Virus genome (UHGV): UHGV-1353844
Reading direction: 5' to 3' (one strand)
Length of the DNA stretch: 64,000 bases
Source of the DNA: a virus
Both the position numbers and the translations under genes were made by a program. Below are positions 862-27,460 of this stretch, in pieces. Numbering within the stretch: the stretch's first letter is position 1; every line of letters starts with the position of its first letter. The notes under the pieces were generated by a model. The model had not been told where the DNA came from. It searched no databases and was given only the letters and a program-made list of their open reading frames with translations.

Positions 862-1779
862 ATGATAGACAATGTGGAATCCAGGATCTCGACGAAGTTG
901 TACGATAAACCCACTATATTGTCCGTAGTTACGACGTCTAAGTGTAACCTAGACTGTAGTTTCTGCGGTGGAGCCTACTACATGAATCGTGAAGATTCGT
1001 CTCGTGCTTTTCAACGCGAACGTATCCTGGAATTACTACAAGAGAATCCAGCTATTAAGGAAATACATTGGACGGGTGGTGAACCGCTACTCGTCCAACG
1101 TAAGATTGAGGATTTCGTTAACGAACTGAAAGTGTCTCATCCGCACCTTGAGCATCACTTGTATACCAACGGCTTAAAACTGCGTAAATCGCATCTTACG
1201 CTGCTAAAAGACTTTGAGCATGTGTTTGTATCAATTGATGGCTACAAACGTTCTGAGCGCCCTTTTATGCGCTTTATTGAAGAGGATAGCCACGAAGCAC
1301 TGGAAGCGTTATACGAACTCGATAACTTCCAAACCTGGGCTGTGATTACGCGTGACCAGTTAGCCGATAAGCGCTGGTATGAAGATATTGTGGATTTACA
1401 TCGTGCGATGTACCACTATCGTCCCCGTGCGTTTTCTCTGATGTTTGATGCCCAAATGCCAAAACCGTTGTCTCCCGATCACATCATGAACTTCGTTTAT
1501 GGTTATTTAAAGATTCAGGAGAATATGGAACGGCTGAACGTCCAAACCGGAGAATCGTGCGGCGTGTCTGTCAGCAAGATTTTCGAAAACGAGTGTAATG
1601 TCTGTAGCGAAGAGTTGTATTTGAACGCAGATGGAACAGAACATCAGCTTCAGAATGCACCGGCTATCTTAAACGGTGGGTGCAATCAGCTTGCTTGCTC
1701 TATCGGGGTAGGTGCTTACGAGTACATTAAACGCGTGATTTATGCAGAGCGTAAAAGGATAAGCAAAGATGAGCAATAA
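862..1779 (+). CDS. radical SAM enzyme with C-terminal auxiliary Cys cluster
   Basis: CNLDCSFC (CX3CX2C) near N-terminus, GGEPLL SAM-binding motif, C-terminal Cys-rich region; SD tggag upstream. Confidence 0.75.
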   Translation: MIDNVESRISTKLYDKPTILSVVTTSKCNLDCSFCGGAYYMNREDSSRAFQRERILELLQENPAIKEIHWTGGEPLLVQRKIEDFVNELKVSHPHLEHHLYTNGLKLRKSHLTLLKDFEHVFVSIDGYKRSERPFMRFIEEDSHEALEALYELDNFQTWAVITRDQLADKRWYEDIVDLHRAMYHYRPRAFSLMFDAQMPKPLSPDHIMNFVYGYLKIQENMERLNVQTGESCGVSVSKIFENECNVCSEELYLNADGTEHQLQNAPAILNGGCNQLACSIGVGAYEYIKRVIYAERKRISKDEQ

Positions 1780-3103
1780 TGAAGCACCACGTTCACAACG
1801 TACTTACCAGGTGGTAACGAACCTGTCTTGTAACTTAGACTGTGAGTATTGTTACGAACGTAAGTATCCGCGTAATAACAAAGCGGCGGATATCGTGGAT
1901 TTCTTACACGCCTGTTTTGAGCGTGATAAAGATATTCCGAACATCGACGTCATTATTGATATCATCGGCGGCGAACCTTTTATGCAACCGAAACTGCTGT
2001 TAGCGGCGTTTGAAACCGCAGAACAGTTGTGTAAGGAGCATAATCGACCGTATATGTTCAGTATCTCCACGAACGGGACGTTGTTAGACCGTCCGTTAAA
2101 CCGTGAGATCGTCGAGCGTTGGAAAGACAAACTCTCCATCGGTGTGTCTATCGACGGGCTGCCAGAAGTCCATGACCGTTATCGTATCTTTACCACGACG
2201 CGTCAGGGTTCTTACGAAGCCGCTGTTCGTGGCTATAACTACTTAAAAGAAGTGGGTATTGCTGAACTGGGTATCAAGGCAACCTTTACAACCGAAACCC
2301 TCCCGCATTACGCGGCGAGTATGAAGTCGTTAATCGATATTGCGGGTGGTGGTACGATTTCGGGTAACGTGACGTACGAAGATATCCTTCCACGGAGCAT
2401 GGCAACGGATATTGCGTTGCAGATGATCGAGGTGATGGATTATTGGATTGAGAAAGGGCTGCACACCAATCCACGTAACGTGTTGTCCCACATCATTCCT
2501 GAAGGTCTGGATTTCCGTCAGATTTGGGACCCAGATTGGCGTGATAAACTGCTGTACGACGACACGCACCGTTATAACCCTGAACGTTTACGTCCGTTCT
2601 GTGGGACGTTGACGTTTATGACTTGTTTAGGTTTTGACCGTAAGGTGTATGGTTGTAACCGATTCATGTCAACGGTAACGTCACGCTCTGCGGTGTTTGA
2701 GTTAGTCGGTCGTGAGTTTGTTAGCTTAGACGGCGGGAAACTGCTGGAAGAGATTCAGACGCAATACACCAACTATCCTGAAACGTGCTTAGGTTGTCCG
2801 ATGAAACACGGTTGTGGGAGCTGTGCAGCTGCTTCCTACGAAAACGGTGAAGGGACACTGGAAGACCGTAAGGCGTACCACGCTGAACGACGTCAATGTG
2901 GTTGGACGACCGCAAAACTGATGGCGGCAGAATACTGGCGTCAACGTACAGGCACCGTCCACGCATCGTCACTGCACGATTCGTCTGTTTGTTACTGTCC
3001 GAAATGTACGCGTGAGCGTGAGCAAGCTAAACGTGCGTTAAATGCACAACCTACTGAGGCAAATAATGAAATCAATTCTGATCCACAATTTTACGAAGCG
3101 TAA
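1769..3103 (+). CDS. radical SAM enzyme with SPASM-type C-terminal domain
   Basis: CNLDCEYC motif, GGEPF motif, C-terminal CLGCPMKHGCGSCAAAS cluster; overlaps upstream gene by 11 nt. Confidence 0.75.
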   Translation: MSNNEAPRSQRTYQVVTNLSCNLDCEYCYERKYPRNNKAADIVDFLHACFERDKDIPNIDVIIDIIGGEPFMQPKLLLAAFETAEQLCKEHNRPYMFSISTNGTLLDRPLNREIVERWKDKLSIGVSIDGLPEVHDRYRIFTTTRQGSYEAAVRGYNYLKEVGIAELGIKATFTTETLPHYAASMKSLIDIAGGGTISGNVTYEDILPRSMATDIALQMIEVMDYWIEKGLHTNPRNVLSHIIPEGLDFRQIWDPDWRDKLLYDDTHRYNPERLRPFCGTLTFMTCLGFDRKVYGCNRFMSTVTSRSAVFELVGREFVSLDGGKLLEEIQTQYTNYPETCLGCPMKHGCGSCAAASYENGEGTLEDRKAYHAERRQCGWTTAKLMAAEYWRQRTGTVHASSLHDSSVCYCPKCTREREQAKRALNAQPTEANNEINSDPQFYEA

Positions 3104-3632
3104 ACTCCACCTGGTTGAGCGTTTTCTGCGCAAACACAAACTCTATAACGTTCACGCCATTATCCCTGGTGAAGACTTTACAGATGAGATTAAACCTCTG
3201 TTGATTAAGTACGGGCTAAACGTGATGATTCCCGTTTACTGTACAGAGACAGGCCATGAGTCCGTTGTGGAAATCGAAAAACGTAATCCGGGTTTCGAAC
3301 AACGCGTACTGGATTACCCACGCCACAAGATCGAATTGCTTCGTTATTCTGCGGAGAATCCGAGTAGCGCATCTATTGCTGCATTAGCGGTGTCTTTCCC
3401 GCGTCTGCCAATCCGTTGCTTGCGTTCTACGTCTATCTACGATGCTTATTACGTAGAGCATCAGACGTTCAACGAAAATGTGTTACCACAGTTAACGGAT
3501 GAAGAACGCGACATTGCAAACGTGGTGTGGTCAAACGATCTCTCTGAAACCTTCCAGTTGGTTGATTTTGGCTTGCTGCAAGAATTAGGTATGGTTGGAG
3601 AAGAAGAATGTCTGCTTCTAACAAAAGCTTAA
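3042..3632 (+). CDS. hypothetical protein, radical SAM island partner; likely true start ATG at 3066 with SD gagg
   Basis: ORF with coding codon bias; overlaps neighbours. Confidence 0.6.
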   Translation: MHNLLRQIMKSILIHNFTKRKLHLVERFLRKHKLYNVHAIIPGEDFTDEIKPLLIKYGLNVMIPVYCTETGHESVVEIEKRNPGFEQRVLDYPRHKIELLRYSAENPSSASIAALAVSFPRLPIRCLRSTSIYDAYYVEHQTFNENVLPQLTDEERDIANVVWSNDLSETFQLVDFGLLQELGMVGEEECLLLTKA

Positions 3633-4282
3633 CGAAAGAAGAGATTCGGGCGCGTTATTTCGCGCACGATCTGCCAATTGACCGCCACGGTAACTACATG
3701 GAACGTGTAGGTAACGAAGACCGTGGTCGTACGGGGTTCTGTGCATTACTGCACTATAAGTTGATTGAAGGGATGAGTGATGAAGAAGCTTTAGCTCAGA
3801 TGCAAACTTACGAAATGTCTCCTATTGAGGCGAAGTTTACACTGAACAAAGCAAAAGAATTCATTACTGACGTTCTGGAGATTAACCTGGACGAGATTCG
3901 TTCGAATATGCGCTCGACGTCTCGCTATATCTATTTAGATATCCAGAAAATCATGTTGGAAATTGAACACCGATACGAAGACCAGCGTCACGGTTATATC
4001 GAAGTTGACGGCCATCATTTCCAAGCGGATGAAACCTCTCGTCAGATGCTGGGTCAATATATCCAGTCTGAAACTGCACCGGATTATTGGCTGGACACGT
4101 CGAATACACGTATAGAACCGTTTACGCTGGAGCAATGTAAAGCGTTAATGGCGGCTATTGTGAAACGTGACCAACAGCTACACAACGCGATGTCTGCCCA
4201 GAAAAGTGAAATTCGTCAGTACGCCGAACAGCGTGACTACGACACGATCCGTGCACTTGCGCTGGAAATGGGATTAGAATAA
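3608..4282 (+). CDS. hypothetical protein, radical SAM island partner
   Basis: 224-aa ORF, SD ggag, followed by strong bidirectional terminator. Confidence 0.65.
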   Translation: MSASNKSLTKEEIRARYFAHDLPIDRHGNYMERVGNEDRGRTGFCALLHYKLIEGMSDEEALAQMQTYEMSPIEAKFTLNKAKEFITDVLEINLDEIRSNMRSTSRYIYLDIQKIMLEIEHRYEDQRHGYIEVDGHHFQADETSRQMLGQYIQSETAPDYWLDTSNTRIEPFTLEQCKALMAAIVKRDQQLHNAMSAQKSEIRQYAEQRDYDTIRALALEMGLE

Positions 4283-4332
4283 AAAATACCTACCTCCGTA
4301 AAGGAGGTAGGTAAACTTATTATTTTTTGTTA
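4280..4332. terminator. bidirectional rho-independent terminator between convergent genes
   Basis: hairpin tacctacctcc-gtaa-aggaggtaggta flanked by A-run and T-run. Confidence 0.7.
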
Positions 4333-4350
4333 TAGTAGTTGACTTAGCGG

Positions 4351-4881
4351 TTAAGCAGTAAAACCGTCCAATTCACCGTCGGTGGTGGCCAGGTCAATAC
4401 GATTATCGACTACCTTCGGTGTAATTACGAAAGTTGCCATTACACCCGGTTTATAACGGAGGTTCTGTTCAGTAACGGTGCATGTCACGGTACGCAGAGT
4501 GACGTTTTCATGTTCGTCTTTCTGGTCTTCGGTGCTGTACACAACGTCACCTGGCGCGATAGCGTCGTCAGGTTTTACTTTGTTGATGTATAGCTGTAAC
4601 CAAGCGCGGAGTTCATTTTCTTGAACCCAACGAGACAGATCGTCAGTTAGTTCAATCCGTCCTACAACACCCGGCTCCAGACGATCGTAATGCAGTTCGA
4701 TTTCGCCTTTGAAATTCTCAGAACCCGGTAGTGCGGTCATGGTAACTTTGGTATTCTTACTTTCGCCTTCCAGCGCAGTAGGGAGACCAAAGGACACTTC
4801 TTTATCTGTAATCTGATGCGGTAGCTCAGCGTTAGCAGCATTATAAAGCGCGACCAACATCATCTGGTTAGTAGCGGCCAT
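4351..4881 (-). CDS. paralog-family protein (HY.RL / ELDGFTA motifs), likely abundant virion protein
   Basis: 176-aa ORF with strong optimal codon bias; paralog of 4951-5487. Confidence 0.6.
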   Translation of the reverse strand: MAATNQMMLVALYNAANAELPHQITDKEVSFGLPTALEGESKNTKVTMTALPGSENFKGEIELHYDRLEPGVVGRIELTDDLSRWVQENELRAWLQLYINKVKPDDAIAPGDVVYSTEDQKDEHENVTLRTVTCTVTEQNLRYKPGVMATFVITPKVVDNRIDLATTDGELDGFTA

Positions 4882-4905
4882 TATCTTAGGTCCTTAATAG
4901 AACAA

Positions 4906-4930
4906 GTTAGAGAAATATCGGGGGAGGTCA
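4906..4930 (-). terminator. GC-rich hairpin with C8 homopolymer between paralog genes
   Basis: atcggggg...cccccccgat inverted repeat. Confidence 0.4.
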
Positions 4931-4950
4931 CCCCCCCCGATTTAACTTAC

Positions 4951-5487
4951 TTAGCCACCGACACCCGGTGCAGTGAAGCCATCAAGTTCACCTTCCAGAC
5001 CGCTCAGCGCTACCTTCTCAGGAGCTGGGTTGGAATAAGTGAAGGTGGCAATAGTACCAGCCAGGAATTTAATGTGTGCATCGTTTACTTTGACAGTGTA
5101 AACTTTAGCACCACTATCCCCGTCAGTTTTCTCAATGGTCAGTTCGCTTTCAGCGAAATAGTCATCGACATAACCTTTAGTAACCATTTCTTCGTTCAGT
5201 TTGGTTACAATGGCAGAGTTTTCCAGATCGAGGCTACCGGCTTTTTCGTAAGCTTTGGCACCGATCAGGTCTTGAGAAGCCAGACGAATGTAGTGGAATT
5301 CTTTCTCGCCTTTGAAGTTCTGGCTTTCTGCCTTGGCGGTCAGCGTAATTTTGGTGTTACGACCACCGGTACCGCTGTGCGCTTCGACAGCACCAAAATC
5401 GACATCATCAACCGTCAGATTAGAAGCGGTTCCTGGGTTTTTAGCAATTACAGCTTCGACGAACTGCAGTTTGAAGGTTTTAGCCAT
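4951..5487 (-). CDS. paralog-family protein (HY.RL / ELDGFTAPGVGG C-terminus), likely abundant virion protein
   Basis: 178-aa ORF, strong codon bias, SD gaggt; antisense ORFs 5074-5509 are shadows. Confidence 0.6.
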   Translation of the reverse strand: MAKTFKLQFVEAVIAKNPGTASNLTVDDVDFGAVEAHSGTGGRNTKITLTAKAESQNFKGEKEFHYIRLASQDLIGAKAYEKAGSLDLENSAIVTKLNEEMVTKGYVDDYFAESELTIEKTDGDSGAKVYTVKVNDAHIKFLAGTIATFTYSNPAPEKVALSGLEGELDGFTAPGVGG

Positions 5488-5625
5488 CTTTTTACCTCGT
5501 AAGTGGTAGGGGTGGATTGCATAAGAATGTTATTTTAGACATTTCCTAAAATATAGATATGACGGTTGGCAGTAGGCGCTAACCTGAAAAAATTAATTTT
5601 TCTTAATTTTAATAAGGGTGAGATT

Positions 5626-6105
5626 ATGCTAAAACGCATTCTCGTGGTCGTTGCTTTTGTAATGACATTGGCAAGTTGTGCTATTCAGCCGAACGCAGAA
5701 GGTCAGTTCTCCACCGTACCTGTTGACCAACACGATATGGTCATTTACACCTGTACAGCTGCTTCTCAAGAATTCGACGATTTTAAACCGGTACCGTCTA
5801 GCCTAAAACTGATGCCCCTTTCGGTGTTAGTCATGGATACAGGGGCGAATTGGGTCGCTACATGGGACGAAGGTAAAATTGAATCTCCGCAACTTTATAA
5901 AGACCTGTTAGGCAAGGTGGACGGTAACTTAAACGTTGTTACCGGTGAGCGCTATTACCGTGTAAACGGGTTACTGTCGAAAACCCCAACGTTTGCGTAT
6001 TCTACCGTCAACTACAAAACGGGTGAAGGTAAAGGTGTAACGTTCTTCAGATGTCACGAAGGCAGCATTCCGGATACCGGCACTATGTTGCACCCGGTAG
6101 AATAA
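5626..6105 (+). CDS. lipoprotein (signal peptide plus lipobox LASC); moron-like opposite-strand gene
   Basis: MLKRILVVVAFVMTLASC N-terminus; ATG at 5626 with SD; the ORF-track start at 5566 is a TTG extension. Confidence 0.65.
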   Translation: MLKRILVVVAFVMTLASCAIQPNAEGQFSTVPVDQHDMVIYTCTAASQEFDDFKPVPSSLKLMPLSVLVMDTGANWVATWDEGKIESPQLYKDLLGKVDGNLNVVTGERYYRVNGLLSKTPTFAYSTVNYKTGEGKGVTFFRCHEGSIPDTGTMLHPVE

Positions 6106-6109
6106 TAAA

Positions 6110-6145
6110 TACCCTCCTGCTTAGCAGGAGGGTAGGCTTATTTTG
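6110..6145 (+). terminator. rho-independent terminator of lipoprotein gene
   Basis: ccctcctgc-ttag-caggaggg hairpin followed by ttatttt. Confidence 0.7.
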
Positions 6146-6225
6146 TCCGTAAAACGCTCTAGAATGCGTTCTAAGACAGTTTATACAAAATAATGTACAA
6201 TCACCCTAAGTTAAGGATTATGCGC

Positions 6226-6741
6226 TTAGATTTTAACTAAGGCGCTCCAATCGATAGGGCTTTGTTTCACGACTTTCACAGTACCGCGATTCGGTGACCA
6301 GAACGTGATATTCGGTTGGTTACGAACGTCGATATGTAACCAACTGATGTCGCATTCGATAAAGTGAATGAACGGAAATTCGTCAGGATTAGCGGCGATA
6401 TAGTCGTGGACTTGTTTTACCGTTGAGTCTAACAGTGTTGCGTCAAATGCATTACCGAACTTGTGCTGACTCCCTGAATCAGAGTAGAGTTGTAACGCAC
6501 GTTGTTTATAGTTACCACCCTTAGGCTTTTCTTGGTTGATGAAAAAGTCTAAGGTTCTTAGGCCACGCTGTTGCGCAGCAGACGAGTTAATCACCATTCT
6601 GCCGAAACGGTTACGAATCTGTTGTAGCGAAATCATTAACAACGGGTTCATAAACCGAATTGCAGAATCACCGTATTTGGCGATGTACGATTGTGGTACT
6701 AACTCTTTGAGTTTAAAGTTACTCGGATTTGGATGAAACAT
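6226..6741 (-). CDS. zinc peptidase M15-like (D-Ala-D-Ala carboxypeptidase / L-Ala-D-Glu peptidase fold), cell-wall hydrolase
   Basis: SQHKFGNAFDA (SxHxxGxAxD) and HIDVR motifs. Confidence 0.55.
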   Translation of the reverse strand: MFHPNPSNFKLKELVPQSYIAKYGDSAIRFMNPLLMISLQQIRNRFGRMVINSSAAQQRGLRTLDFFINQEKPKGGNYKQRALQLYSDSGSQHKFGNAFDATLLDSTVKQVHDYIAANPDEFPFIHFIECDISWLHIDVRNQPNITFWSPNRGTVKVVKQSPIDWSALVKI

Positions 6742-7393
6742 CTTCCCTCCCAGACAGAAAAGCCCGTTTGATGTTCAAGTATTTGACATTAACGGGACAA
6801 CCTGTGGTGATATCAACACGTTCGTGGTCAGGAATAGCAGGCTCCTTAAACTCACGAACGAACAAATAGTTTCGATTGTAATCTAACGTACGGTAATCGT
6901 TAGTGGTATAAGACGGCTTCGCGTTAGGGTCTACGTAAGCATCCCAACCGAACCCCGCCACGGCTTTATAAAATGTTTGGCAGATATACGGCGAGATTTC
7001 CAACGACTGCATAATACGCAGGAATGTTAAGTCAGAGAACTCTTTATCGATAATACGCGAAACGTTACCACCCGGTGTCATGGGATAGCTACGCTCCGTG
7101 TTACATTTTTGATAGAGTAAGTCGTGAATGCAGGCCGCAGGTGCCCACGGTCCGTCAGGATGGAAAATTCCCTGTAAGTGTTCAGGAATTGACGCTAAAT
7201 CGGTAACGAACCCTTTCGGAGCGGTTAACCACAGTTGCGTGTCAGGTAATACACCGGTTAAATAAACCGCACGGTCTAAGTGTACGTGGTCGTGATAAAT
7301 CTCACGTAACGTAAACGGATAATGGTAATCCTCCGTTAATACAAACCACTTATTATCTAAACGTTTATATTGAAGCTTTTCCATTACCCACAC
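6719..7393 (-). CDS. DUF1353-like protein
   Basis: TDLASIPE and HDLLY motifs typical of DUF1353. Confidence 0.45.
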   Translation of the reverse strand: MWVMEKLQYKRLDNKWFVLTEDYHYPFTLREIYHDHVHLDRAVYLTGVLPDTQLWLTAPKGFVTDLASIPEHLQGIFHPDGPWAPAACIHDLLYQKCNTERSYPMTPGGNVSRIIDKEFSDLTFLRIMQSLEISPYICQTFYKAVAGFGWDAYVDPNAKPSYTTNDYRTLDYNRNYLFVREFKEPAIPDHERVDITTGCPVNVKYLNIKRAFLSGREDVSSKSE

Positions 7394-7500
7394 CTTTCCT
7401 TACAAAAACCAGAAGAACTCTTGTCCACGTTTTTCGTCTTTACGTTTCCGTCCAGACGTTAACGCTTTCCACAATAACGCTAAGAGTTTAGCAAACCAGT

Positions 7501-8091
7501 TCATTTTACTAACCCCGCTTTTACCGCATAATCTGCCATTTCTCTGAAGACGCGGCCGTACCAACCGTAGGTGTATTTCTCGTTTCTCTTACGTTTTTCG
7601 GAGATTTCCGTGTAGTAAGTTACTTGGTGCGAGATTAACGCAAAGATTAAAATGCTTAGCCCTTCATCTTTACGATATTTCAGGTACGCGTTCAACGCGC
7701 CCAGCGTTTTAGGCCCCATACCGCCGTCGGTATCGATGTCCGCGTAGAGTTTACCTTCGTTGTTCAACACGTTGAGAATACGCTGTAGCGATTTCACGCA
7801 GTTGGCACGACCTGCGTTAATACCAAAATCAAACATCCGGTCCGCGAGTAACGGTGAGATAGCGAAAATCTCATCAAGTTTGAGCTTCTTCCACCAACCG
7901 CGATCGTAGATATCGAATGCTTGTGCACGGGTAAGGTCTTTCATCTTCCCTGTGTAACCGTACTCACGTGCAGTCGTTACCGTGATACCGTGGTTCGTTT
8001 CTGCACCTAAGTCGTCAGGGTCGTTGACGTACCCGCCTTCCAAATCGGTTTTGGATTCAATGATACCTTCTTTAGACCAACGTTCAGCCAT
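7501..8091 (-). CDS. GH108-like lysozyme with C-terminal PG_binding_3-like domain (endolysin candidate)
   Basis: EGGYVNDPDDLGAETNHGIT N-terminal motif; C-terminal peptidoglycan-binding-like region. Confidence 0.55.
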   Translation of the reverse strand: MAERWSKEGIIESKTDLEGGYVNDPDDLGAETNHGITVTTAREYGYTGKMKDLTRAQAFDIYDRGWWKKLKLDEIFAISPLLADRMFDFGINAGRANCVKSLQRILNVLNNEGKLYADIDTDGGMGPKTLGALNAYLKYRKDEGLSILIFALISHQVTYYTEISEKRKRNEKYTYGWYGRVFREMADYAVKAGLVK

Positions 8092-8111
8092 TTTCGTTTA
8101 ACTCCTCTTTT

Positions 8112-8152
8112 ACACAAAAAAGAAAAGAGGGTGGGGATTACCCCCACCCTGT
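8112..8152 (-). terminator. rho-independent terminator
   Basis: agggtgggg-atta-ccccaccct hairpin with A-run on plus strand (T-run on minus). Confidence 0.65.
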
Positions 8153-8154
8153 AA

Positions 8155-8634
8155 TTATTTTTTCTTCTTAGCGCGTGATGGCTTAGCTGGCGGTGTTTCA
8201 ACAGCCGGTTTACGTGCAACACGCACCGTAAAACCGCCGACCCAAGTCAGACACTCAGGACGGAAGAAAATACCGTGTTCGATTGCGCTACCGTCCAACG
8301 GTAACTCACCAACCTGTTCTACCCACACGTCGTCTTCTGTAAGGGTTAGGCTGTACTGCTCGTTAATGACGGGCAGTAAGTCAGCGGTAGTCGTTGCAGA
8401 TTCTACCAACAGTTTCGGTAATACGTTCAGGAAATACAAACCTGCGTCAATGCGGTTATACTGGAACGTTTGTTCGTTAGTGTAACCGAGATTCTTAATT
8501 GACGCAACTGTGATTTCGGTATTGTAAGTACCGGTGGTCACAACCGGATCGCCCAGCGTGACTTTGGTGGTGTCGAACTCAGCGTCCGGGTTAGCCTTTT
8601 TAATAAGGTCGAAGATAGTTTCTTGATTGGTCAT
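8155..8634 (-). CDS. paralog-family protein (YNRID motif), basic C-terminal tail
   Basis: 159-aa ORF; shares Y.R[IL]...DLL..IN..Y.L motif with 8648, 16961, 26897. Confidence 0.6.
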   Translation of the reverse strand: MTNQETIFDLIKKANPDAEFDTTKVTLGDPVVTTGTYNTEITVASIKNLGYTNEQTFQYNRIDAGLYFLNVLPKLLVESATTTADLLPVINEQYSLTLTEDDVWVEQVGELPLDGSAIEHGIFFRPECLTWVGGFTVRVARKPAVETPPAKPSRAKKKK

Positions 8635-8647
8635 TACTGTAATCCTC

Positions 8648-9496
8648 TTAATCTAAGAATCCCGGTAAGACCGGATTAGTCTGTGCTAATTCAATCTTCG
8701 ACTTCGGACGATCGGTACCGTTAAAGTGAATTAACAGGTTACCGGTCAGGTTAGAACACAGCGGGCTGAGCGTTAGCACCAACACACGAGTGAACTTCGT
8801 ATTTGCGCCTTCGTAACCTGCGGTTGGACCATCGTAAATAACTTTAGCACCGTACAGGTTGTTAGCCGCGTTCTTAGGTACACTTACCCATTTCTCATCA
8901 ACGACGCCATCCAGTTTAGAGGCTAACTCTACCAAGTCTACGGTGTCGTTGATAGTAATCGGGTCAAGGTAATCTTTTTCTGCGGTGAAATCAATCGGGT
9001 GTGAATAAACCGCAGCGTTACCTTTCTTAGTGGACGGATACTCTACCAGATTCTCTAATTGAGTAACTGGTAAAAGTTCAGTCAGGTCAATAGGATCATG
9101 CAGCGTAAGCGTTACTACACCGCACCACTCGTAAGATTTCTCGTTAGCGGTAAGCTGATGGGTTTCGCCTTCAACTTTTGCGTCAACGATATCCGAGGGT
9201 AAAATATTTAGGCTGTATTTTGCGTTGATCGCATTAAGCAAATCTGATGCGGTTACCACACTGTCGTTACCGAATACCAACTCACCGGTTAAGTAGTCAG
9301 GTAAATTACGACGGTGGTAAGTCACTGTTAAAGTAGTAGACTCATCGCCTTTGAGTTTAGAGGTCAGAACCACCTGGGTATCAACCCCAGTACCGGTAGG
9401 TTCTCCGATATCAACATCACTGAAAGTCAACGGTGGACTAATATTGTTTTCAGTGTTGATGAGTTTTAGCAGTTTCTGTTTTGACGTAAGAGACAT
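8648..9496 (-). CDS. paralog-family protein (structural candidate)
   Basis: 282-aa ORF; motif similarity to 8155-8634. Confidence 0.6.
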   Translation of the reverse strand: MSLTSKQKLLKLINTENNISPPLTFSDVDIGEPTGTGVDTQVVLTSKLKGDESTTLTVTYHRRNLPDYLTGELVFGNDSVVTASDLLNAINAKYSLNILPSDIVDAKVEGETHQLTANEKSYEWCGVVTLTLHDPIDLTELLPVTQLENLVEYPSTKKGNAAVYSHPIDFTAEKDYLDPITINDTVDLVELASKLDGVVDEKWVSVPKNAANNLYGAKVIYDGPTAGYEGANTKFTRVLVLTLSPLCSNLTGNLLIHFNGTDRPKSKIELAQTNPVLPGFLD

Positions 9497-9662: not shown

Positions 9663-10094
9663 TTAGCGAACGTTGTGTGCTAGGTACATCAGGGTCCGGG
9701 TGTCGATATCACGAGAAGTTTGCGACATCTGACTCAGTAGAGTGCTGGCAGTAGGGTCGTTGTAAACACGACTTAACCACTCGTCAACCATTTCTGGTAC
9801 AGTGTCGACTAAAAGCGGATAGTTAAGATTTTCCAGTGTGTATTCAACGAATTCGTGCATCAGATTCTGGTCACGATGCATAGAGTCGCCTAATTCACCT
9901 GCGGGATACTCTTCACGAGGACGTTTACCCCAGCTACAGATGTGCATGTAGTTAGTATTCACAATTTCCTGATATTCTTCTAACTTAACTAAATCGAAAT
10001 CAGTATTTGGACGACAGAAACCTGCTAAAACGCCCAGGGCAATCGGGTTGTTGCGAATGTAGTTACGGATATCATCTTTTAATACGAAAAACAT
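9663..10094 (-). CDS. hypothetical protein, paralog of 11352-11783
   Basis: 143-aa ORF; shared DxRxYIR and YPxGxxG motifs. Confidence 0.6.
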   Translation of the reverse strand: MFFVLKDDIRNYIRNNPIALGVLAGFCRPNTDFDLVKLEEYQEIVNTNYMHICSWGKRPREEYPAGELGDSMHRDQNLMHEFVEYTLENLNYPLLVDTVPEMVDEWLSRVYNDPTASTLLSQMSQTSRDIDTRTLMYLAHNVR

Positions 10095-11351: not shown

Positions 11352-11783
11352 TTATTCGTAGTTGTGCTTAAGGAACTCTAAAGCACGTTGGTCATTGGTT
11401 AATGCTACCGCCGACATTTTCTTTAAGGCTTGACGACAGTAAGCGTCACTCACAATACGTTGCTGCCAAGCATTAACAATTTCCGTGACTGTTTCTCCTT
11501 CTACAGCCGTATTGAGTTTATCGATAAAGTGACGTCCCATCAGATACGCAACTGCGTAGTCTGTGAACATCTCTGTACCGAAATCGCCGTCTGGGTAGTC
11601 AGCACGTTTCCGCACTGACATATCGGTAACAATTTGATACGACGACTTCACCACTTCGTGGAATTTTTCTACCGTTAAGGTATTAAGGTCCATACCCGAT
11701 AAAGAGAGTGAAGCCAGTACCGGAATACTGGCTGGGTATTTACGAATGTAATCACGCAAATCAGAATTTAGGGTTTTCATCAA
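11352..11783 (-). CDS. hypothetical protein, paralog of 9663-10094
   Basis: 143-aa ORF. Confidence 0.6.
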   Translation of the reverse strand: MMKTLNSDLRDYIRKYPASIPVLASLSLSGMDLNTLTVEKFHEVVKSSYQIVTDMSVRKRADYPDGDFGTEMFTDYAVAYLMGRHFIDKLNTAVEGETVTEIVNAWQQRIVSDAYCRQALKKMSAVALTNDQRALEFLKHNYE

Positions 11784-26931: not shown

Positions 26932-27460
26932 CTGTAACCTCGAATGTAAGAACGGCATTGTCACCAATACAGAAGATTGCATCTTCTTCGTTTGCTAATG
27001 CCCGTTCGGTTGTATCAAACAACGTCACCATAAACGCGTTCATCCACGCAGGAGAATCGTCGGCAACGTTAACGGAAATGGGATCGTTACCTAAAGTGAT
27101 ATCTGAAGCACGTAAATCCTCGGGTTGTAAGTTCGTTCCGCAGAATTCATTTACAACACTAAGAATGTCACGAACGTTGTCTTCAGTACCGTCTAACGAA
27201 ATCAGAATGGGTTCATACGTTAATACTTCATCTGCGTCGAGTCTGTCGTAATAAACCACAACAGACGCACCATCTGGTTTTCTGATTTTACTGATTTCGG
27301 TAATGGTGTTACGACGCGAAGTTGTTGGAGATGAGTTTGTTACGGTCCCGCTAATACGTATTTCGTTTAGCGTAAGCTGTAACCCATTATCGTGATTGAT
27401 TAAAGCGACCACTAGCTCTGCTGAGGTCAGACTCAAATCAGGTACGTATGGTGTGGCCAC
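26897..27460 (-). CDS. paralog-family protein (PDLSLTS, VYYDRL); GTG start
   Basis: 187-aa ORF; paralog of 16961-17473. Confidence 0.6.
   Translation of the reverse strand: MATPYVPDLSLTSAELVVALINHDNGLQLTLNEIRISGTVTNSSPTTSRRNTITEISKIRKPDGASVVVYYDRLDADEVLTYEPILISLDGTEDNVRDILSVVNEFCGTNLQPEDLRASDITLGNDPISVNVADDSPAWMNAFMVTLFDTTERALANEEDAIFCIGDNAVLTFEVTDGDSTEEDETP

Follow-up and report, generated by a model that had tools for sequence, protein, structure and literature searches.

A small gene on the plus strand of the 64,000-nucleotide stretch of viral DNA analysed here (the window) belongs to an SPN3US-like giant phage; it is real, probably transcribed separately, and encodes a lipoprotein. Judging from the sequence, the product is very probably exported to the outer membrane, and it is homologous to gp159 of SPN3US and gp174 of Asesino. 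The reading favoured here, to which we give a probability of roughly one in three, is that it is a non-virion accessory protein of a nucleus-forming, SPN3US-like jumbo phage, whose role resembles that of T5 Llp and Cor in logic, not in ancestry.

Very little has so far been described of how chimalliviruses, the phiKZ-like nucleus-forming phages, deal with the host envelope, be it in lysis, in superinfection or in the loss of progeny on debris. The gp159/gp088 family is conserved, non-virion and, by its predicted signals, exported; two of the phages that carry it, SPN3US and Goslar, are genetic models. Should the family act in exclusion, this would matter for the design of cocktails of jumbo phages and account for the mosaicism of alleles at this locus. 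If not, it would add to the conserved hypothetical proteins whose fold and location are predicted.

Gene structure and lipoprotein signal

The features of the locus are collected in Table 1. The plus-strand open reading frame spans positions 5566-6105, where the TTG at 5566 is only a mechanical ORF start. The real start is the ATG at 5626: all homologues align from its methionine, a Shine-Dalgarno-like site lies directly upstream, and the same product is given by independent gene callers. The gene so defined occupies 5626-6105 and encodes 159 amino acids; the independent calls of this product were made on near-identical contigs.

Table 1. Features of the lipoprotein gene and of the genes on both sides of it (window coordinates; the dot marks a feature common to both strands).
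Feature	Coordinates	Strand	Evidence
Divergent neighbour, small DUF7941 protein, homologue of SPN3US gp160	4951..5487	-	Pfam DUF7941, phrog_4862
Promoter-like motif TATGAC, putative transcription start G5561	5558..5563	+	conserved upstream motif
Shine-Dalgarno-like site AAGGGTGAG	5614..5622	+	sequence itself; 3 nt before ATG 5626
Predicted lipoprotein signal peptide, residues 1-17, MLKRILVVVAFVMTLAS	5626..5676	+	PS51257-type rule
Cys18 codon, predicted lipid-attachment residue; +2 residue Ala	5677..5679	+	alignments
Predicted mature protein: tether of ~20 residues, 8-stranded beta-barrel (~39-145), disordered C-terminal tail (149-159)	5680..6102	+	AlphaFold2
Tandem stop codons TAA TAA	6103..6108	+	sequence itself
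Intrinsic-terminator hairpin (6110-6134) and T-rich tail, common to the convergent genes	6110..6144	.	folding energy
Convergent cell-wall block	6226..8091	-	domain and PHROG matches, synteny
M15/LAS-like peptidase	6226-6741	-	phrog_894 (endolysin), motifs
DUF1353 gene	6719-7393	-	domain match
Cationic 34-aa ORF	7400-7504	-	gene callers, conservation
GH108 muramidase with PG_binding_3 domain	7501-8091	-	domain match

The upstream region contains the motif TATGAC, found 38-71 nt 5' of the start codon in 21 of 21 SPN3US-like loci, the spacers of which have otherwise diverged. The background rate of this motif is 0.017 per 130 nt. In the Goslar-type loci, TATGGAA is present at -37 to -40. The late-promoter consensus of phiKZ has the core TATG, with the G as position +1 (PMC4666361). 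As TATGAC matches this core, it may, by analogy, be a promoter of the non-virion RNA polymerase. The divergent gp160-type gene is preceded by TTATGCAA, 36 nt 5' of its own start on the minus strand. The two genes would then be transcribed from back-to-back promoters of the non-virion RNA polymerase, with middle or late expression, again by analogy with phiKZ.

The strong terminator downstream of the gene has a G+C-rich stem of 11 bp followed by CTTATTTT. The hairpin has a folding energy of -22.1 kcal/mol (z = -4.1), and none of 200 shuffled sequences folds as well. Situated between convergent genes, it can act in both directions.

The N-terminus of the protein, MLKRILVVVAFVMTLASC, conforms to the PROSITE PS51257-type rule (K or R in the first 7 residues, an uncharged h-region, a lipobox [LVI][ASTVI][GAS]C, and the cysteine at position 15-35), with K3 and R4, the h-region ILVVVAFVMT, the lipobox LASC and Cys18. 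The rule is passed by 32 of the 34 family members; of the other two, one has a mis-called N-terminal extension and one a short signal. Of the 1123 start/ORF combinations in the window that are 50 aa or longer, only this one has a convincing lipobox; the other four matches are short TTG or GTG ORFs. The maximum of the Kyte-Doolittle profile (19 residues) is 2.10, at residue 2. Cys18 is invariant in the family alignments A2, A3 and A5. At +2 the protein has Ala; A, V, T, Q or S occupies this position in all other members, and none of the 34 has Asp. According to the established +2 rule, lipoproteins without Asp at this position are sorted by Lol to the outer membrane, so that this location is to be expected of the protein. 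Lipidation at Cys18 is predicted.

From position 4351 to about 50000, all other sizeable ORFs are on the minus strand, except a 57-aa ORF at 27078-27251, so that the lipoprotein gene is essentially the sole plus-strand gene in a minus-strand array of ~45 kb. The sequence-only reading had described a single plus-strand gene at 5566-6145, with a classical lipoprotein signal and lipobox and with a terminator of its own. This observation is confirmed: the signal, the lipobox and the terminator agree with the data given above, as does the orientation opposite to the neighbours. The start is moved from the TTG to the ATG at 5626.

Distribution and genomic context

A megablast search of INPHARED with region 4300-8200 yielded no match, and relatives were recovered at the protein level only. 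Tblastn against 50,697 phage records (E <= 0.01) identified 56 records with 53-60% identity, all of them jumbo phages of ~240-250 kb with Salmonella, Erwinia, E. coli or Proteus as hosts, including SPN3US, Asesino and phiEaH2. The protein matches phrog_9559 (E = 9.7e-70 over residues 2-150), a group of unknown function; no family was found for it in Pfam, NCBIfam or PADLOC. The family forms 26 clusters in a set of 5.8 billion proteins, with 14 representatives in a set of 1.84 billion, and is confined to jumbo phages of Enterobacterales. All members retain the lipobox and two further cysteines, C43 and C143.

Identity is 54% with SPN3US gp159 (SPN3US_0159, YP_009153453), 59% with Asesino gp174 and ~30% with Goslar gp088 (YP_009820773), the most distant cultured member. 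These three and the present protein have in common the lipobox, both further cysteines, the conserved motifs and a small DUF7941 gene as partner; the three are annotated as 'hypothetical protein' or, automatically, as 'Lipoprotein'. Unlike these cultured phages, the allele described here belongs to an uncultured lineage with genomes of ~224-227 kb. No loci were found in IMG/VR for the most distant homologues (P0029, P0030), and the literature searched yielded nothing pertinent on gp159, or on a lipoprotein, a spanin or exclusion in these phages.

Near-identical phage genomes of ~224-227 kb are present in several metagenome assemblies (loci L033-L038). The assembly GCA_008917135.1 of a Salmonella enterica serovar Agona isolate contains a near-identical contig of 224.8 kb (SKEP01000003.1), which suggests that the phage was co-sequenced with isolates, as a carrier state or as contamination.

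One could suppose that the gene is a non-functional chance ORF whose beginning resembles a signal peptide; the lack of a known function is all that would speak for this. However, the proteins are 30-99% identical over dozens of phages, the invariant residues fit the predicted fold, the substitutions suggest purifying selection, and the start, the promoter-like motif and the terminator are conserved. This conservation effectively refutes a chance ORF, the probability of which is practically nil.

The gene is flanked on one side by DUF7941 virion genes (4351-5487, minus strand). The lipoprotein gene and the small DUF7941 gene are situated head-to-head, ~140 bp apart, in each of the 15 loci from IMG/VR and likewise in the relatives from GenBank. 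The SPN3US homologue of the latter, gp160, is a head protein and the fourth most abundant protein of the virion (PMC5694885), with more than 300 copies. SPN3US gp159 is not in the table of virion proteins identified by mass spectrometry, whereas the products of its neighbours, gp160, gp157 and gp155, are. In Goslar the order is the small DUF7941 gene (gp091), a P1 S-like tail fibre (gp090), a Tfa chaperone (gp089) and the lipoprotein gene (gp088), all co-directional.

The cell-wall block is convergent and downstream of the lipoprotein gene both here and in SPN3US, and the M15-like peptidase is present in some of the phages only. In four Erwinia-type loci (L012-14, L017) the block is on the opposite side. 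The Asesino-type phages have the lipoprotein gene without an M15 gene, and no lysis gene was found within 8-9 kb of gp088 in Goslar. As the lysis block switches sides or is absent near gp088, the constant partner of the lipoprotein gene is the DUF7941 gene and not the lysis genes.

The gene occupies the syntenic site in every relative examined, and its base composition is ordinary (G+C content 0.41-0.45, compared with 0.43-0.48 in the flanks). Therefore it is ancestral to this phage lineage, and recent horizontal acquisition can be rejected on both synteny and composition. It had been proposed from the sequence alone that the gene is a moron situated between virion-structural and cell-wall-hydrolase genes, in an arrangement like that of T5 llp beside receptor-binding genes. 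The position holds, with DUF7941 genes on one side and the M15, DUF1353 and GH108 genes on the other. Of the attributes of a moron, the terminator, the opposite strand and, by analogy, a promoter (the TATGAC motif) are present; a sporadic origin is contradicted by the normal G+C content and by occurrence at the same site, with at least 56 phage records and a distant relative in Goslar. The comparison with the llp arrangement is unsupported in the window, where the divergent neighbour is the homologue of gp160, a head protein; the tblastn search retrieved jumbo phages only and no T5-like phage.

Two genes of the cell-wall block deserve separate mention. The peptidase (171 aa) has no Pfam match; its motifs SQHKFGNAFD and WLHID are of the kind usual in LAS/M15 metallopeptidases. 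The homologue in SPN3US, gp158, is found in virions but not in tailless particles, and the Erwinia relatives lack the gene. The 34-aa ORF, MNWFAKLLALLWKALTSGRKRKDEKRGQEFFWFL, directly follows the GH108 endolysin gene. The encoded peptide is cationic and amphipathic, and its conservation in close relatives is 94-100%. Independent callers also predict it as a gene, and the annotations of Asesino, phage 1252 and EC001 have small ORFs in the same place. A membrane-active peptide with a function in lysis is one possibility.

Predicted fold, and possible roles in lysis and hydrolase inhibition

The AlphaFold2 model, built from 26 sequences, has a mean pLDDT of 82.5, with values above 90 in the core. 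It consists of the signal helix, the tether and eight strands over residues 39-145. The invariant cysteines C43 and C143 fall in the first and the last strand, respectively, and in the model a disulfide between them could plausibly close the barrel. All members also keep the motifs GQF(S/G)TVPV, DxGANWVA, ESPQLYKDLLGK(I/V)DG and RYYR. The mature part has 141 residues, 6.4% of them proline. It lacks a C-terminal transmembrane domain, and the C-terminus, ...GSIPDTGTMLHPVE, is hydrophilic. A Foldseek search of PDB with the predicted model found nothing at E <= 1e-3, and a profile search of PDB sequences gave chance matches only (E >= 0.09). In BFVD, the fold search retrieved family members and other uncharacterised small phage proteins. 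These matches are generic, and the fold class is that of an unspecialised barrel for binding ligands or proteins.

Among the outer-membrane lipoproteins encoded by phages, o-spanins are much the most frequent. One possibility is therefore that the protein is a lysis accessory at the outer membrane, either o-spanin-like or a factor that breaks this membrane, or times its breakage, at the end of infection. The gene indeed adjoins the endolysin block, as do genes of o-spanins of the lambda Rz1 type, and has a late-type promoter motif. However, there is no gene for a transmembrane partner that would be adjacent, embedded or overlapping: among the ORFs within 5 kb on each side, a hydrophobic segment of 19 residues occurs only in the signal of the lipoprotein itself. 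The mature part is a confidently predicted globular barrel and not a short, extended, Pro-rich chain as in Rz1, and in the absence of a C-terminal transmembrane domain the protein is not a u-spanin of the T1 gp11 type either. The linkage to the lysis block is not conserved, as described above for loci L012-14 and L017 and for Goslar, and SPN3US has a separate candidate spanin pair. Membership among o-spanins and u-spanins is thus rejected, and a role in lysis in the wider sense is very unlikely.

The candidate pair of SPN3US (NC_027402.1, 180017-180976; locus L030, 33017-33976) lies outside the window. It consists of adjacent, co-directional genes for a 156-aa protein with one N-terminal transmembrane segment and a 159-aa Pro-rich protein with the lipobox LLTGC. 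This is a candidate for an i-/o-spanin pair; the SPN3US record names neither a spanin nor a holin. The lipoprotein of this pair was found in 73 phage records, some of them without the gp159 family.

Another possibility is inhibition of a peptidoglycan hydrolase, in the manner of MliC/PliC or T4 Spackle. Tethered to the outer membrane, the barrel would act by binding to a muramidase or peptidase, which would protect the sacculus of the infected cell. The target may be the tail-associated lysin of a superinfecting phage or the phage's own GH108 and M15 enzymes. Such an inhibitor is a mechanistic variant of exclusion. In most relatives the gene is convergent with the M15/LAS peptidase and the GH108 muramidase genes, at a distance of 0.1-2 kb, and the SPN3US peptidase gp158 is virion-associated. 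The lipobox, the predicted eight-stranded barrel, the Y-x-C in the first strand and the cysteine in the last strand resemble features of MliC, and one BFVD match (E = 1.3e-3) is to a protein of RB49 whose annotation includes a lysozyme-inhibitor domain of the LprI type.

On the other hand, the Pfam family of MliC/PliC (PF09864, which includes Brucella PhiA) is matched by none of the 26 members, even at E <= 10. The hhalign match to MliC, a hit of 86%, covers only the signal peptide and Y-x-C, and mature regions alone give P = 0.21; the E. coli MliC query agrees with 2F09, and the MliC alignment used is low in diversity, all its homologues being at least 75% identical. The MliC motifs SxSGAxY and YxxxTKG, which form the inhibitory loop, are missing. 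A tblastn search of phages with MliC found no bridging homologues. Moreover, the lipoprotein is kept in the Asesino-type phages despite the missing M15 gene, and Goslar has no lysis gene within 8-9 kb of gp088. Membership in the MliC family is rejected on both the HMM and the profile-profile tests, which leaves a weak lead at the level of the fold, and inhibition of hydrolases is unlikely.

Local diversity and possible roles at the host envelope

The lipoprotein gene is a hotspot of diversity. Between SPN3US and SEGD1, 1252 and EC001 the flanking proteins are 99-100% identical and the lipoproteins 94-95%. In the comparison with SEGD1 the density of single-nucleotide differences is highest on the lipoprotein gene, with 13 and 11 mismatches in its two 300-nt windows and 0-4 in most others. 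The DNA of the window and that of loci L007 and L008 is 59-71% identical from ~4950 to 6300, that is, over the DUF7941 and lipoprotein genes, and 88-97% identical in the flanks. The differences between the Seoulvirus alleles are mostly synonymous and patchy, and a rough count gives dN/dS near 0.2 among close relatives. Since the substitutions are of this kind, the hotspot suggests exchange of alleles by recombination; positive selection as its cause is unsupported, by the same rough count.

The known outer-membrane lipoproteins of phages other than spanins, T5 Llp and Cor, are exclusion factors. A role in superinfection exclusion or receptor masking is plausible for the gp159 family as well, as the protein is not a virion component, membership among spanins and MliC proteins has failed, the locus is a diversity hotspot, and the Goslar gene is adjacent to those of a tail fibre and its chaperone.

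Like Llp of T5 and BF23, the present protein is, by prediction, a small outer-membrane lipoprotein of a virulent phage, is not part of the virion, and is encoded in a unit of its own divergent from a late structural gene; by analogy, it could work as T5 Llp does. However, the sequences have no detectable similarity, Llp is not among the fold matches, and mature T5 Llp has less than half the length of the present mature protein. The promoter motif is of the late type, whereas llp of T5 is an early gene. In place of the receptor-binding protein encoded beside T5 llp, the divergent neighbour in the window is a head protein, which counts against exclusion. Adjacency to receptor-binding genes is found neither here nor in the SPN3US-like phages, and in Goslar gp088 directly follows the tail fibre and Tfa. 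Cor of T1, phi80 and N15 is likewise an outer-membrane lipoprotein of phages, inactivates an outer-membrane receptor from within, and is encoded near tail genes, as is Goslar gp088; again, no similarity was found by tblastn or PHROG. The absence of any link to Llp or Cor in sequence or fold, by tblastn, PHROG and fold searches, is a further point against exclusion.

We infer the late timing and the whole of the exclusion mechanism, including its target, as follows. The gene would be transcribed alone, from the TATG-type promoter to the hairpin terminator, and the product exported by Sec. Cys18 would be lipidated and the signal peptide removed, and Lol would deliver the lipoprotein to the inner leaflet of the host outer membrane. 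There the tether of ~20 residues would hold the disulfide-closed eight-stranded barrel in the periplasm. The barrel might bind a conserved component of the envelope that an incoming phage needs after adsorption, or else some part of the incoming tail. Neither the infected cell nor its debris would then support productive or irreversible attachment any longer, so that superinfecting relatives would be excluded and progeny spared.

The reported receptor of SPN3US is the flagellum (PMC11428620), which is not obviously a structure that could be masked from the periplasm. From phages of Salmonella to those of Erwinia, E. coli and Proteus, the core of the barrel shows 45-60% conservation, which sets it apart from the receptor-specific Llp proteins and argues for a conserved target. 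The same conservation across hosts, which suggests a conserved bacterial target, would also fit some other role directed at the envelope, without exclusion of the phage's own kind, for instance in altering the function of the flagella, in the signalling of envelope stress, in vesiculation, or in resistance against unrelated phages or colicins. The flagellar receptor of SPN3US, the generic binding barrel and the lack of a family in Pfam, NCBIfam, PADLOC or PDB are compatible with such a role. However, this is a residual category, in which nothing specific favours any one role, and we regard it as possible, if doubtful.

To return to exclusion, one may speculate that the gp159/gp088 proteins represent a class of exclusion lipoproteins that is new, stands apart in structure, and is specific to the nucleus-forming jumbo phages of Enterobacterales. 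An MliC-like barrel tethered to the outer membrane would neutralise the peptidoglycan-degrading apparatus of the superinfecting tail, or another conserved entry component, and exchangeable alleles would set the specificity between co-circulating lineages. In this elaborate form the proposal is quite unlikely.

Some further observations concern other genes of the region. The DUF7941 genes of the window (4351-5487 and 8155-9496, minus strand) are the counterparts of 'paralog family B', the large family of head proteins in SPN3US. Goslar gp086 (locus L022, 10343-12955) has DUF7941 fused to domains of the N4 gp65 type, that is, of a non-contractile sheath with receptor-binding function, a hint that DUF7941 serves as a module that anchors variable distal domains. 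At 862-4282 on the plus strand there are two adjacent radical-SAM genes and genes for a 196-aa protein and a DUF4376 protein. These form one block that moves relative to the lipoprotein gene between genera, and the block is mosaic in close relatives: the first radical-SAM protein is 66-99% identical, compared with 97-99% for its neighbours. Finally, two 143-aa ORFs at 9663-10094 and 11352-11783 (minus strand) have clearly similar N-termini (…DIRNYIRNNPIALGVLAGF… and …DLRDYIRKYPASIPVLASL…), and behind each comes a larger ORF; the arrangement resembles a two-gene unit duplicated in tandem.
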